Assembly: GCA_027337125.1 (NCBI GenBank)
Contig: GCA_027337125.1_3057.1
Source: a phage
Length of the DNA: 64,000 bases
Reading direction: 5' to 3' (one strand)
The translations under genes and the position numbers were made by a program. The notes below the pieces were generated by a model. The model was not told where the DNA came from, made no database searches, and saw nothing but the letters and a program-made list of their open reading frames with translations. Below, in pieces: positions 23,140 through 63,032 of this stretch. Numbering within the stretch: position 1 is the first letter of the stretch; each line of letters begins with the position of its first letter.

Positions 23140-23370
23140 TTAAAAGCTTTCTTCTACTTCATCGTCTGAATCTTCTAATTCAGCTCTTTTTCCTGCCAAA
23201 GCATCTCTGACAGAGATGTCATCAGTATCTTTTAATTCAGTTTCTTTAACTCTTTTCTTATAATAAGCTTCAAGTTCTTCTAGACCTTCTAATGTTTGGC
23301 AAGAGGCAATTTTACCCATAAATTCATCAATAGAAGCTTCATAAAGAAATTGTTTAAATTCTAGTAACAT
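23140..23370 (-). CDS. uvsW.1: UvsW.1-like small acidic protein
   Basis: 76 aa from ATG (GGAG RBS 8 nt upstream); ORF track extends to TTG at 23382; in T4 this gene directly follows uvsW. Confidence 0.7.
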   Translation of the reverse strand: MLLEFKQFLYEASIDEFMGKIASCQTLEGLEELEAYYKKRVKETELKDTDDISVRDALAGKRAELEDSDDEVEESF

Positions 23371-23383
23371 CTTTTTCTCCAAA

Positions 23384-23395
23384 GGGCCGAAGCCC
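23384..23395 (-). other. short UUCG tetraloop hairpin between HNH gene stop and uvsW.1 RBS
   Basis: + strand GGGCCGAAGCCC; - strand reads GGGC-UUCG-GCCC. Confidence 0.45.
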
Positions 23396-24088
23396 TTATA
23401 AATTAACTGTTTTTCTAAGTATTCTTAGTTTGTACATTGATAATCCAGTAGCTTTAGAAGCATCTTTCATGCATTTATACTTAACACCATTTATTTCTAT
23501 AGGTTTAGCAGCTGGGTTATTAGCTCCTGAATTATCTGGCATGTTATCTTTAATTTTCTGAATAGATTTAGCGGAATGTTTCCTTCCATACATGCCATTA
23601 TTTTTACCTGATTGATTGATAGAATGCAATCTTTTAGCTTCTTCAGTCCATTTTGTTGGGTTCATTCTTTTAGTTTTACTAATTTTACTTCCCCACGTAA
23701 TTGGACGATTTTTCATGAGTTTTGACATATATTGTTTATGTTCTTCCGTATGGTGTTTTCCGTAAAATGGATTGCCTTCACCTGATTGAAGTTCTGCCAT
23801 TTTACGACGTTCCCAGGCGTAAGATTTATTAACGTGTCTTTCATGAGTCTTTGAATTCATCCCCATACATATAACGGCTTTAATTATACCGTAATGGTTC
23901 GGATGAATTTTAGCTAAAAGTTTATGAGCTATAAAATGCTCTTCAGCTGTTAGTTCTACCAAATTACACTTATCATCTGTACCGCCCATACATCTAGGAA
24001 TTATATGATGAGTTTCAGTGTATCCATTAAGGCGAGCCCGATTCTGGGCTCTATTAATTAAATTATCGTATATTAATTTATAATTCAA
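23396..24088 (-). CDS. freestanding HNH homing endonuclease (Mob-like, with NUMOD-like repeats)
   Basis: 230 aa; HNH core YTETHHIIPRCMGGTDDKCNLVELTAEEHFIAHKLL; C-terminal repeats NPFYGKHHTEEHK / NGMYGRKHSAKS; start overlaps uvsW stop. Confidence 0.85.
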   Translation of the reverse strand: MNYKLIYDNLINRAQNRARLNGYTETHHIIPRCMGGTDDKCNLVELTAEEHFIAHKLLAKIHPNHYGIIKAVICMGMNSKTHERHVNKSYAWERRKMAELQSGEGNPFYGKHHTEEHKQYMSKLMKNRPITWGSKISKTKRMNPTKWTEEAKRLHSINQSGKNNGMYGRKHSAKSIQKIKDNMPDNSGANNPAAKPIEINGVKYKCMKDASKATGLSMYKLRILRKTVNL

Positions 24089-25593
24089 AGTTTAACCTCT
24101 TTCATCACATAATTAAACTTCTCATCAGCATAACGCTGAATACGATCAAGTCCATGTTTTAAAAGATAGTTTAAATGCGAGTATTTTTTAGAAGATGTTT
24201 TTGATTTAGAAACTACGCCCGCGTCATCTATGAGGTCCCAGACTGTTGCTATTGTTTTAGAACCATGCTTACGTAATACGCGACCTATTGTTTGCAATAC
24301 AATAATTTTAGATTTAACACCGTGCGCTAAAACAACGTGATGCAGATTTTTAACTGAAATACCAGTAGAAAATACACCATAACTAGCTACTATAATTATT
24401 CCTTTACCGTTTTCAGCTAAGGTTTTCATTACATTGCGTGTTTCAGTATCAACTTCCCCTGATACGTAATAAACTTTATCGTATTCATTTTTAATTAAAT
24501 CGAAAATAGCTTTACCATGTGATACATGCTTAAACATGACAAAAGCGTTTTCATCTTTTTGCGCAAGCTTAATAGCTAATTTAGCGATCCATTTATTTCT
24601 TTTACTGAGCCCAGTAATAATTTTTATTTCTTCTTGGTAAGTTTTTCCCTTTAATTTAGTAGTGAACTCATCGGGATAGCGAAGAAAAATACTATTAATT
24701 TTTAGCTCAGTTACTTGTCCATCTTCCATTAATTTAGAAGTCGTTACTGGCTTAAATATTTCACCAAACATTCCAACATACTGCATGATATTAGCTTTGC
24801 CATCGCGCAATGAACCGGACAAACCAAATTTAAACATACAGTTATTTAAACCTGATATGATAGATGAAATACTTTTTCCTGTAGCAAGATGGCATTCATC
24901 ATTCATCATCATTCCAAACTGTGAGAACCATTCTTTCGGTTGTTTTACTACAGTTTGCCATGTACCAACAACGACTGGTGCATCATTTTTATATTTATCA
25001 TCTTTTGATGCTCCACCACCGATTTTCTTTATCATTGCATGACTGAATAAACGATAGTCAACAAAGTCATCAGCCATCTGAGTTGTTAAAGCAGTTGTTG
25101 GAACAATGATAAGAATTTTACCTTCATAATTTTCCAAATAATAACGTGCAAGCAAAGCTTGAATTAAAGATTTACCTGCGGATGTTGGAAGATTAAGAAT
25201 TCTACGACGATTAACTAATCCTTCGAACACTGCATCTTTTTGATACCAGTGTGGTTCAATTCTTTTATTTCCTGAATAGATTTCTAATTTAGAAAGCCAT
25301 TCATCAAAATCTTTTCTTGATAATTCTTCTTTTTCGTTAATCTGTGGGTCAATCCAGGCTTTATAGCCAAAGTTATCGCAGAACTTTTTAATTTGCCCGA
25401 CTAAGCCGAATGGAAGAAGACGATTATAATCTAAAAGACGGATTCGTCCATCCCAGTTGCCATATCTGAAGCGAGGGTTAAACCTATATCCATCGGCCTC
25501 AAACGAAAAGAAATCTCTTAATTCGTGGAACGTGCTCTCTTCACAATCGATGCGTACATGACTGAAGTCGTGAAAATGTACTTTAATATCCAT
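24085..25593 (-). CDS. uvsW: UvsW DNA/RNA helicase
   Basis: 502 aa; Walker A PTSAGKS, DECH box MMNDECH; matches T4 UvsW. Confidence 0.93.
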   Translation of the reverse strand: MDIKVHFHDFSHVRIDCEESTFHELRDFFSFEADGYRFNPRFRYGNWDGRIRLLDYNRLLPFGLVGQIKKFCDNFGYKAWIDPQINEKEELSRKDFDEWLSKLEIYSGNKRIEPHWYQKDAVFEGLVNRRRILNLPTSAGKSLIQALLARYYLENYEGKILIIVPTTALTTQMADDFVDYRLFSHAMIKKIGGGASKDDKYKNDAPVVVGTWQTVVKQPKEWFSQFGMMMNDECHLATGKSISSIISGLNNCMFKFGLSGSLRDGKANIMQYVGMFGEIFKPVTTSKLMEDGQVTELKINSIFLRYPDEFTTKLKGKTYQEEIKIITGLSKRNKWIAKLAIKLAQKDENAFVMFKHVSHGKAIFDLIKNEYDKVYYVSGEVDTETRNVMKTLAENGKGIIIVASYGVFSTGISVKNLHHVVLAHGVKSKIIVLQTIGRVLRKHGSKTIATVWDLIDDAGVVSKSKTSSKKYSHLNYLLKHGLDRIQRYADEKFNYVMKEVKL

Positions 25594-25595
25594 AA

Positions 25596-26213
25596 TTATG
25601 CCTTACTAAATTTGCCTTTAGAGTCTCTTTTCATGAGACGACCTTTAATAAATCCGTCGGGAATAATACCGTCTGGTTGTATTAATTTATTTATTGCACC
25701 ATTATTGACCCAAAAAGTTCCTGTGGTAGTCGGTTTGACTTTACATCCTTTTCTGGACTTTCTATTAGGATGAACCATCCCTTTTACAAATCCTTCTGGA
25801 ACAAGTTCTCCAGGTTTAATAAAAATATTTTTAGTTCCATTAGTGTAACAAGTTGCACCTAATACCGTGCCCGGTGAGTTTTCAAATCTCTTAGCGGAAG
25901 ATTCTTTCATCTTTGATATAACCTCTGTAGTCATAACAATTCCGCCAATTCCGCCAGGTTTCATATTATAATAATTTTTGCTTTTTATTATTTCAGGAGT
26001 TATAATTTCTTCTTCATACATGTACGCTTCTTCGGAAGTTTTAAACTCTTTTAGTATTGTTCTAGAGAAATTGTTTTCACCATATTTCTTTATAGCCTGC
26101 TGAATTGCCTTACCGGAACCAAGATAACCATCATTCAAGTCATCAGTAGAGTGTTTTCCTATATACTTTTTACTATTTATTAGATTTGTTGTTTCATATA
26201 CAAAGTGGTACAT
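25596..26213 (-). CDS. segE: GIY-YIG homing endonuclease, SegE-like
   Basis: 205 aa; N-terminal GIY-YIG region FVYETTNLINSKKYIGK...GYLGSG; located between uvsW and inh as T4 segE. Confidence 0.8.
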   Translation of the reverse strand: MYHFVYETTNLINSKKYIGKHSTDDLNDGYLGSGKAIQQAIKKYGENNFSRTILKEFKTSEEAYMYEEEIITPEIIKSKNYYNMKPGGIGGIVMTTEVISKMKESSAKRFENSPGTVLGATCYTNGTKNIFIKPGELVPEGFVKGMVHPNRKSRKGCKVKPTTTGTFWVNNGAINKLIQPDGIIPDGFIKGRLMKRDSKGKFSKA

Positions 26214-26241: not shown

Positions 26242-26249
26242 TATTTATA
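26242..26249 (-). promoter_or_regulatory. candidate late promoter (TATAAATA on - strand) upstream of segE-like gene
   Basis: + strand TATTTATA 29 nt upstream of segE start. Confidence 0.45.
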
Positions 26250-42876: not shown

Positions 42877-45387
<2,511 letters not shown>

Positions 45388-61549: not shown

Positions 61550-62376
61550 TGGCTATTTTTCAAATAATTAATGAAAGCACTCCCCAAGTTCCAAAGGTTA
61601 AGCAATCATTAAACGAAAAGAAATGGATTCAGATAGGTCTTGAATACAAAAAGGCCAAAGCAAAAGGAATGACAGGAAAGCAATTTGCTGAAGAAAGAGG
61701 AATCAAATACTCTACGTTTACTTCGGCAATGTCAAAATATGCTTCAGGAATTAAAACGGCTGAAAAGATTCAAAAGCTTGAATCAAAACCAATGAATAAA
61801 CTCAATAAGCAAGAAAGACAACTGCTTATGATAAATTCATTCAGACAAACATTGCGTGATAAAATTCGTAATGAAGGCGCAGCAATTAATAATAAAACCA
61901 GAAAGTGGTTTGCTGAAACTATTAAGCAAGTAAAAGGACATAAAGTTGTTCGCCCGCAGCCGGGACGAATATATGCTTTTGCTTACGATGCTAAACACAA
62001 AGAAACTCTTCCTTATTGGGATAAATTTCCTTTGATAATTTACCTTGGTTTAGGTAAACATAATTTAATGTATGGATTGAACTTGCACTATATTCCACCT
62101 AAAGCTCGTCAACAGTTTCTAGAAGAGCTTTTAAAGCAATATTCAAATACACCTACTATTACTAATAAAACGAAATTAAAAATTGATTGGAGTCAAGTGA
62201 AAGGATTTAGGGGTGCAGACCAAATGATTAAGGCATATATACCCGGTAATATTATGGGTAGCCTTGTTGAAATCGCCCCGAAAGACTGGGCGAACGTTGT
62301 GTTAATGCCACTCCAAAGCTTCTACTCCAAAGGAAAACGTTTCTCTGCAAACAAAGTTTGGAGCAATGTACGATGA
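61549..62376 (+). CDS. 2: DNA end-protector protein gp2
   Basis: 275 aa (T4 gp2 274). Confidence 0.85.
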
Positions 62377-63032
62377 ATTATGAAAAAATTTATAATTCAC
62401 TAATTGATAGGGCTCGCAATAGAGCCCTTACTGGATATAAAGAAAGACATCATATTATTCCGAAATGTTTAGGCGGTAGTAATGATGCTTCTAACTTGGT
62501 TGATTTAACTCCAGAAGAGCATTATGTTGCACATCAGCTATTAGTAAAAATACACCCAAATTCTTTAAAATTATCTTATGCAGCCATAAAAATGACGGTT
62601 TCAACTAAATATGTTAGGAGAAATAATAAAGTTTATGGTTGGTTAAAAAGAAAACATGCAAATAATATTTCAAATACACAAACTGGACGAAAATATTATA
62701 ATAATGGTAAAAGATGTATAAAATTGCATGATGGAGATATAATTCCTGAGGGATTTATTTTAGGAAGAGGATGGAGTCCGACACAAGGAACAACTCATTC
62801 TAGAAAAAATGACACATTTAAAAACAAAAAGCTTCAATCTGCTTTAGCTAATAAACGGTGGGAAAAAGAAAAGAAAATAATGTTAGATAACTTTGGAGTT
62901 AACACTATTGATGAAGCAAAGAAAATTGTTCTTGATTTAAAATCAACTTGTCATCCAAGATATTGGCGAAAGCCAACTTTAGAAAAATTTCCATTTATGA
63001 CTTCTGCTCGTTTAAGAAGTCTAATAAATTAA
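62373..63032 (+). CDS. freestanding HNH homing endonuclease (Mob-like)
   Basis: 219 aa from ATG overlapping gp2 stop (ATGA); [36 protein letters not shown]; C-terminal [25 protein letters not shown] repeat shared with the SegE-like protein. Confidence 0.85.

Follow-up and report, generated by a model that had tools for sequence, protein, structure and literature searches.

What kind of gene sits at the junction of the helicase gene uvsW and its neighbor uvsW.1 in a T4-like phage, how does it fit there and how does it persist? We asked these questions of a 64,000-nucleotide stretch of phage DNA, which we call the window. We put the probability at about 80% that the gene is a free-standing member of the T-even Mob family, predicted to encode an HNH nuclease domain followed by NUMOD3 repeats and a helix-turn-helix tail. 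Its role as an endonuclease is assigned by homology.

The Gene and Its Neighbors

The window is a T4-like segment of the Tequatrovirus type. On its minus strand, segE, uvsW, the HNH gene and uvsW.1 follow one another, and after uvsW.1 come the converging plus-strand genes uvsY.-2, uvsY.-1, uvsY, gene 25 and gene 26. The four minus-strand genes are the following.

25596 to 26213, minus strand: segE, a GIY-YIG homing endonuclease gene at the other end of uvsW (Pfam SegE_GIY-YIG; named segE in T4 and T6)
24085 to 25593, minus strand: uvsW, the helicase gene and upstream flank (502 aa; Pfam UvsW_N 8e-44, ResIII, Helicase_C)
23396 to 24088, minus strand: predicted Mob-type HNH homing endonuclease reading frame (230 aa, TTG start, TAA stop; from the ORF listing, PHROG and Pfam)
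23140 to 23370, minus strand: uvsW.1, the downstream flank (76 aa; Pfam UvsW-1 1.7e-30)

The start codon of the HNH gene is a TTG at 24086–24088. It overlaps the uvsW TGA (24085–24087) as TTGA, and a GAGG Shine–Dalgarno sequence (24096–24099) lies seven bases upstream of it. An alignment of the family bears on the choice of this start, as the N-terminal MNYxKIY is conserved from the TTG onward. The stop codon is the TAA at 23396–23398, 25 nt from the uvsW.1 ATG (23368–23370). The ORF listing hence agrees with the original prediction of a 230-aa frame reaching from the uvsW stop codon to 25 nt before uvsW.1. The same prediction had drawn the boundary of the feature at 23384, which is the end of a hairpin (GGGCTTCGGCCC, 23384–23395) and not the end of the frame (23396). 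Both flanking genes had been named correctly, since Pfam matches them to UvsW_N and UvsW-1. The UvsW protein of the window shares 97.6% of its amino acids with that of T4.

The same coding sequence has already been annotated in T6 and other phages. In one GenBank record (MK327944) it is labeled a group I intron endonuclease, a label that we reject. The gene is free-standing: it lies between the conserved uvsW and uvsW.1, on the same strand as both, and its frame is directly abutted by their coding sequence. No Rfam family, group I introns included, was found between 22500 and 26500, even at E-values up to 1. A match to TIGR01453 stays below threshold (28.9 vs. 56 bits) and covers only the DNA-binding C-terminal region.

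A Mob-Type Nuclease Domain with an I-TevI-Like Tail

The predicted protein can be divided into three parts.

23804 to 24088, minus strand: N-terminal HNH (beta-beta-alpha-metal) nuclease domain, about residues 1–95, core THHIIPRCMGGTDDKCNLVELTAEEHFIAH (alignment, profile matches, pLDDT)
23519 to 23791, minus strand: central NUMOD3 repeat region, about residues 100–190, NPFYGKHHTEEHK and NGMYGRKHSAKS (Pfam NUMOD3, match to 1i3j)
23411 to 23506, minus strand: C-terminal predicted helix-turn-helix module, about residues 195–226, INGVKYKCMKDASKATGLSMYKLRILRK (1i3j alignment, structure model)

The HNH core and the NUMOD-like repeats are present as first described. PHROG 655, "homing endonuclease," matches the protein at 2e-61 and Pfam NUMOD3 at 7.7e-14 in two stretches; the Pfam HNH model scores 16.8 bits, below its curated cut-off of 21.4. 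The catalytic block is intact. A substitution of the catalytic histidine or asparagine would speak against a working nuclease, and neither residue is substituted: H28 and N42, together with H51 and H55, are invariant in 27 homologues, as are Y3, Y23, P31, G36, L46, E50 and A54. With a profile of the family, HNH cores of solved nucleases are matched as well, namely those of EcoKMcrA (2.3e-4), Cas8-HNH (0.0079) and a group II intron maturase (0.0044), and the structure model has a pLDDT above 90 for residues 1–70.

The tail resembles a different protein. The DNA-binding domain of I-TevI (1i3j) is matched with an E-value of 0.0058 by the single sequence and of 7.6e-5 by the family profile. It is also the top Foldseek match of the C-terminal region (probability 1.00). 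In the structure model the C-terminal module consists of two short strands followed by two helices.

Among 5.8 billion proteins the orthologues form a well-delimited group of 224–233 aa and 55–97% identity, after which scores drop sharply to other Mob-like proteins. MobB of RB55 (a phage of the T4 species), MobD of RB3 and MobE of T6 align with the protein over the first ~100 residues, with an identical catalytic block. The identity to the three is 30–39% overall, concentrated in residues 1–100, and at the nucleotide level 75–82% over about 110–120 nt. This homology agrees with the proposed Mob-like membership. The proposed paralogy with two other HNH genes of the window holds as well, for the N-terminal catalytic domain only: the gene at 43649–44461 is 41% identical over 114 aa (E 5e-24) and the gene at 62373–63032 is 55% identical over 98 aa (E 4e-34).

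How the Gene Fits into the Operon

In two loci that lack the gene, L006 and L007, the junction reads ...TACGTAATGAAAACAGTTAATTTATAA-GGGCTTCGGCCC-TTTGGAGAAAAAGATG. Comparing these empty sites with the filled site of the window defines three elements.

24085 to 24102, minus strand: substitute uvsW end contributed by the cassette, AAAGAGGTTAAACTTTGA (K-E-V-K-L-stop; from filled vs. empty junctions)
23396 to 23413, minus strand: original last codons and stop of uvsW, AAAACAGTTAATTTATAA (K-T-V-N-L-stop; identical in the empty sites of L006, L007 and T4)
23384 to 23395, minus strand: GGGC-UUCG-GCCC hairpin, GGGCUUCGGCCC, between the stop codon and the uvsW.1 ribosome-binding site (from the fold and the empty-site loci)

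In the filled site, uvsW ends on codons that the cassette supplies in place of the original ones. This copy, AAAGAGGTTAAACTTTGA, also holds the signals for translating the HNH gene, its GAGG ribosome-binding site and its TTG start. From AAAACAGTTAATTTATAA onward the window is unchanged, yet this sequence now terminates the HNH frame (…RKTVNL-stop). Hence the cassette contributes no stop codon to the HNH frame and borrows the original one of uvsW; signals for stop–start coupling are kept for both the HNH gene and uvsW.1. The substitute end and the borrowed stop together allow both uvsW and uvsW.1 to stay expressed. The cassette is a clean natural example of how a homing endonuclease gene can fit into a tightly packed operon.

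The same design is found in the Dhakavirus PSD2002, where uvsW ends in …KEVQI-stop and the HNH frame in …MKQVDL-stop. In Jiaodavirus there are ATGA overlaps on both sides of the gene. In the Gaprivervirus DK-13 the gene lies between two identical 19-bp copies of TAATTAAACAGGTGGAAAT, of which the empty relative EAWsc9 has only one; the flanking repeats are degenerate in Tequatrovirus (11/18), Jiaodavirus and Dhakavirus. We read the repeat as a probable functional duplication of translation signals.

Aligning the uvsW–uvsW.1 junction with T4 and other relatives, as had been suggested, upholds the location of the gene and its absence from T4. It does not uphold a strictly intergenic site, since the insertion lies inside the last codons of uvsW. 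The hairpin needs a similar qualification. It does separate the stop codon of the HNH gene from the uvsW.1 ribosome-binding site, a GGAG that comes next, and it folds in both the minimum-energy and the centroid structure. In the empty-site loci L006, L007 and L010, however, it is found directly 3′ of the uvsW stop. Hence it belongs to the ancestral uvsW–uvsW.1 spacer and is ruled out as a feature of the insertion.

Expression

One exact match to the T4-type late promoter consensus lies upstream of segE.

26242 to 26249, minus strand: T4-type late promoter consensus, TATAAATA (exact match)

Between it and uvsW.1 there is no other exact late-promoter match on the minus strand, which makes TATAAATA a candidate promoter for a segE–uvsW–HNH–uvsW.1 transcript. 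In a scan for consensus promoters and terminators, matches were not enriched over shuffled sequences. The HNH gene is probably expressed late and at a low level. With a TTG start and no promoter of its own, very little protein could be made. A 9-bp helix that might cover the ribosome-binding site and start is predicted by the centroid fold only and is absent from the minimum-energy fold; an equivalent helix was not seen by eye in Roth77 (Jiaodavirus) or DK-13.

Occurrence and Selection

The original prediction had uvsW and uvsW.1 contiguous in T4, and this was right: the T4 reference (NC_000866) carries no gene there. A known sequencing error in the record fuses uvsW and uvsW.1. T6 carries the gene, as "T6ORF179, hypothetical protein." By BLAST summaries of the phage collection, which are not record-by-record tables, the gene occupies uvsW/uvsW.1 in 49/500 Tequatrovirus-type records (at least 80% of a 1.5-kb query covered), in 13/188 Jiaodavirus-type records and in 9/102 Gaprivervirus-type records. 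A query with the gene alone likewise returned 49 records with copies of at least 95% identity. The Jiaodavirus orthologue (Roth77) shares 68% of its amino acids with the gene of the window and the Gaprivervirus orthologues (DK-13 and SP18) share 57%; all of them, and the orthologue in the Dhakavirus PSD2002, are at the same site. BLAST of the phage collection found the gene only at uvsW/uvsW.1. IMG/VR yielded only 14 uvsW.1 loci, which is why the counts rest on the BLAST summaries. Minority presence in each genus at a single site, as these matches suggest, is the classic pattern of a homing endonuclease gene.

The gene is under purifying selection, with a dN/dS of 0.05–0.07 within Tequatrovirus and 0.12–0.17 between genera. 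The window differs from T6 or G8 by 21–22 synonymous and 5–6 nonsynonymous changes in the gene.

The gene is already present in dozens of deposited genomes (~50 relatives including T6), most of which annotate it by homology. Most carriers have it as a homing endonuclease; other labels are mobD, mobile endonuclease E, NUMOD3 protein, group I intron endonuclease and hypothetical. In the open-access literature we found no published description of it. To judge by its sequence and occurrence, it is an ordinary, uncharacterized and probably active member of a known family.

A Divergent Tract of uvsW Accompanies the Gene

We aligned ~6 kb of the window with the carriers T6, ZN18 and G8 and with the noncarriers T4, L006 and L010. 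Carriers and noncarriers differ markedly in one part of uvsW.

24089 to 24235, minus strand: 3′ tract of uvsW linked to the HNH gene, about 150 nt (divergent from empty-site alleles)

In successive segments of this tract carriers and noncarriers differ at 14/60, 16/60 and 7/35 positions, compared with a background of 0–5/60 and with 0–7/60 over the rest of uvsW. This amounts to a divergence of 22–27% from empty-site relatives, with 0–4% in the flanks beyond. Measured as a block, the tract diverges by 26.9%, a genus-to-genus level, and the preceding 600 nt by 3.9%. Among themselves, carriers are nearly identical within the tract. On the other side of the gene, uvsW.1 has 0–3 mismatches per 55–60 nt to empty alleles, and the three are errors of the T4 reference at the junction. 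The divergence changes amino acids as well: in Tequatrovirus, VVSKSKTSSKKYSH replaces a VKPKSANxKKKYxH motif that is otherwise universal. For genome annotation, the cassette explains why UvsW C-termini vary between T4-like phages that are near-identical in other respects.

The association with the gene is seen beyond the aligned phages. A BLAST search with the tract alone returned 49 records at 95% identity or more, one at 90–95% and the rest at 90% or less. Records with the tract haplotype equal gene carriers in number, 49 each, which is a match of counts and not of individual records. In Jiaodavirus, the carrier Roth77 differs from LilPanda by 9/60, 19/60 and 6/39 within the tract, by 0–1/60 nearby and by 0/60 on the uvsW.1 side. 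Gaprivervirus has a weaker and shorter version. SegE, whose gene adjoins the opposite end of uvsW, served as a positive control: in uvsW 25455–25574, 15–20/60 positions separate segE-less phages from the window. The one-sided tract looks like an indirect footprint of homing, of the same kind as the one SegE appears to have left at the 5′ end of uvsW.

A donor of the tract was not found: no uvsW allele that we compared is close to it (distance 27–36%), and the tracts of Roth77 and DK-13 are each other's nearest (17%). We also searched across genera for columns that separate filled from empty sites, as a guide to the target site. There is only one such column, the third base of the K/R/Q codon in ADE(K/R/Q)FNY, and it is not significant, as 26/220 random labelings do equally well.

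The tract and the interrupted junction are the only local differences between carriers and noncarriers, and a carrier has to be immune to its own enzyme. Hence the recognition site should fall at least partly within the final ~150 bp of uvsW or across the junction, which leaves only a short stretch in which to look for the target and makes the element easily testable. The tract is also too divergent for homologous exchange inside it, so that gene and tract act as one ~850-bp block of nonhomology. On the uvsW.1 side, where sequences are identical, recombination can resolve immediately. The tract could also be foreign DNA that hitch-hiked once, instead of a determinant of immunity.

Proposed Homing and Alternative Explanations

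The pattern suggests the following mechanism. No promoter consensus lies within the cassette, which would be transcribed as part of a late segE–uvsW–uvsW.1 unit. Ribosomes finishing uvsW would then probably translate the HNH frame at a low level. The TTGA overlap of stop and start suggests as much, as do the GAGG site and the weakness of the TTG start. When a carrier co-infects with a phage that lacks the gene, the extended tail of the protein might recognize the 3′ end of the empty uvsW allele or its junction with uvsW.1, uvsW being the probable carrier of the target site in such genomes. The HNH domain would nick or cut nearby, and the recombination-dependent repair of the phage would copy the gene from the carrier genome. 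Carriers would be immune because their junction is interrupted and because the last ~150 nt of uvsW that accompany the gene are foreign and 22–27% divergent.

One could go further and argue that the mobile unit is larger than the gene. It would be a composite of ~850 bp, made of the foreign last ~50 codons of uvsW, the substitute stop and start signals and an endonuclease frame without a stop, which the uvsW end of the recipient completes. Each homing event would then rewrite the C-terminus of UvsW. We put this forward tentatively, as a possibility with somewhat less than even odds. If it is true, uvsW is a gene with a selfish element at either end, SegE being the second, and each of the two independently moves its own end of uvsW between phage genera.

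It is also conceivable that the gene is an inactive or decaying remnant, kept by linkage and recent descent. Degeneration after fixation is common for homing endonuclease genes (PMC13405050). The weak TTG start and the Pfam HNH score below threshold would fit this explanation. A remnant is nevertheless unlikely. The frame is full length in four genera, all residues of the HNH core are invariant, and dN/dS is low both within Tequatrovirus (0.05–0.07) and between genera (0.12–0.17). Furthermore, the gene is far from fixed: at ~5–10% of genomes it is at the stage expected for active elements. A benefit to the phage, more than its own spread, might also be what keeps the gene, which is under strong purifying selection. 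The protein could harm co-infecting competitors, or it could act with SegE in mobilizing or amplifying the uvsW region. Two independent endonuclease genes do bracket uvsW, and it has been proposed that islands of genes between such endonuclease genes move as units (PMC10448857). In T6, amplification of anti-defense loci by SegB has been reported (PMC13096335). If segE and the HNH gene formed such a unit, they should travel together. They do not, as all four combinations of presence and absence occur: both genes in the window and T6, segE only in T4, the HNH gene only in ZN18 and G8, and neither in L006. Between the two tracts uvsW is ordinary (0–7 mismatches per 60 nt), and the gene is infrequent in every genus, as one would sooner expect of a selfish element than of a beneficial gene. 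Hence we give a benefit to the phage only a slim chance.

The least credible explanation, which we would be very surprised to see confirmed, is that the element duplicated its target on arrival, by illegitimate or transposition-like insertion, and does not spread through repair-mediated homing. It is suggested by the direct repeats of the terminal uvsW codons around the gene, which in DK-13 are perfect over 19 bp. The repeat is, however, explained by the need of both the HNH gene and uvsW.1 for a ribosome-binding site and a stop–start overlap. No transposase or recombinase is encoded, and the gene is found only at uvsW/uvsW.1. A divergent tract on one side is the footprint of recombination, not of transposition, and the family members that have been studied spread by homing (PMC2988022).

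Comparison with Known Systems

The closest relatives by catalytic domain are the Mob proteins of T4, such as MobA and MobE. The N-terminal block YTETHHIIPRCMGGxDDxxNLVxLTxxEHFIAHxLL is common to them and the HNH frame. Like the mob genes, the HNH gene is free-standing, apparently without a promoter, oriented as its neighbors, located beside a gene of DNA metabolism and sporadic in its occurrence. It differs from MobE in its tail, which is made of NUMOD3 and a helix-turn-helix, whereas the tail of MobE is Cys-rich. It also differs in its location, because uvsW/uvsW.1 is not among the five mob sites of T4 in a 2010 review (PMC2988022). With this unnamed site the classic list for T-even phages grows from five insertion sites to six. 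MobA and MobE have been reported to nick their targets (PMC2988022); for the product of the HNH gene, cleavage and homing are inferred. The findings leave the current understanding of homing endonucleases unchanged.

The tail links the protein to I-TevI, the intron-encoded GIY-YIG endonuclease of T4. Both the NUMOD3 helix and the C-terminal helix-turn-helix align with PDB 1i3j. Such a tail implies a recognition site that is long, modular and asymmetric. The HNH frame would thus encode a further HNH nickase or nuclease with a long target site and a modular DNA-binding tail like that of I-TevI. Unlike I-TevI, it has an HNH and not a GIY-YIG catalytic domain, and its gene lies outside any intron.

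SegE is the closest parallel in terms of location. It is listed as an active endonuclease with uvsW as its target gene (PMC2988022 Table 1; PMC2330249), and homing with co-conversion of flanks has been shown (PMC2330249). Both genes adjoin uvsW, and in both cases the neighboring end of uvsW has a stretch, similar in size, over which carriers and noncarriers diverge strongly. segE, however, belongs to the GIY-YIG family, lies between inh and uvsW at the other end, and is distributed independently of the HNH gene.

Another Mob-type gene within a host coding region is mobE of Aeh1, which splits nrdA into two genes while the function of the host gene is kept. Here, only the last five codons of uvsW are displaced and replaced, and the UvsW protein is not split. 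Regulation by an RNA structure over the ribosome-binding site has been reported for Aeh1 mobE (papers cited in PMC2988022).

Finally, an important gene flanked on both sides by homing endonuclease genes is reminiscent of the "HEG islands" of Barth, Dunham and Seed (2023, PMC10448857). The likeness is limited to this arrangement. segE and the HNH gene occur independently of each other, and the interior of uvsW is neither unusually conserved nor unusually divergent.

Selfish genes at both ends of uvsW

The HNH gene between uvsW and uvsW.1 is not the only homing endonuclease gene next to uvsW. At the opposite end of the gene we found:

25596-26213, minus strand: segE, a GIY-YIG homing endonuclease gene abutting the 5' end of uvsW

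The part of uvsW beside segE (25455-25574) is divergent as well: 15-20 of 60 bases differ between the window and phages without segE (the HNH gene carriers ZN18 and G8, and the empty-site phage L006). Hence, uvsW is bracketed by two independent selfish genes. All four combinations of presence and absence of segE and the HNH gene are found among relatives.

At the other end, the linked tract, the last part of uvsW that travels with the HNH gene, also differs in the protein it encodes. Tequatrovirus carriers encode VVSKSKTSSKKYSH at UvsW residues ~459-472 (window ~24170-24214, minus strand), where all other T4-like genera examined, carriers and non-carriers alike, have VKPKSANxKKKYxH. In the linked tract of Tequatrovirus carriers, a conserved helicase motif of UvsW is swapped for VVSKSKTSSKKYSH.

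Age and insertion of the HNH gene

Across 23399-24084, the synonymous divergence of the HNH gene from that of T6 (dS ~0.17, roughly 4% of bases) exceeds the value for the genes immediately beside it (~1-2%). The HNH gene lineages may be older than their present flanks.

In the Gaprivervirus carrier DK-13, a perfect 19-bp direct repeat, TAATTAAACAGGTGGAAAT, lies on both sides of the HNH gene (L004 1665-1690 and 2355-2380); the empty-site relative EAWsc9 has a single copy (L020 ~1525-1550). The repeat resembles a target duplication, yet the ribosome-binding site serving both the HNH gene and uvsW.1 also lies within it.

The T4 reference (NC_000866) reads AATTTAATAAGCTTCGGCCC at the junction (L002 4180-4215), whereas other empty-site phages read AATTTATAAGGGCTTCGGCCC (L006 2955-2990). 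This difference is a known sequencing error, by which uvsW and uvsW.1 are fused into a 587-aa ORF in the T4 record.

RNA structure at the start of the HNH gene

Two helices are predicted here:

24034-24051, minus strand: 7-bp GC-rich hairpin GAGCCCAGAAUCGGGCUC, codons 13-19 of the HNH mRNA
24112-24120 paired with 24088-24096, minus strand: candidate 9-bp helix, in the centroid structure only

The 131-nt region containing both folds better than shuffled sequences (z = -2.96). If formed, the candidate helix would overlie the TTG start of the HNH gene and the end of its ribosome-binding site.

Further Mob-like HNH genes

The window contains two more genes of this kind:

43649-44461, minus strand: second Mob-like HNH gene, located between neck protein genes 13 and 14; its product has 270 aa and a C-terminus rich in Cys
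62373-63032, plus strand: third Mob-like HNH gene, 219 aa counted from ATG

Of the 503 phage records that match around the second gene, about 47 extend across it and the remainder lack it; for the third gene the figure is about 37 of 513 matching records. The latter's neighbours are a 275-aa protein, annotated as "DNA end protector" in relatives, and a downstream baseplate/tail gene.
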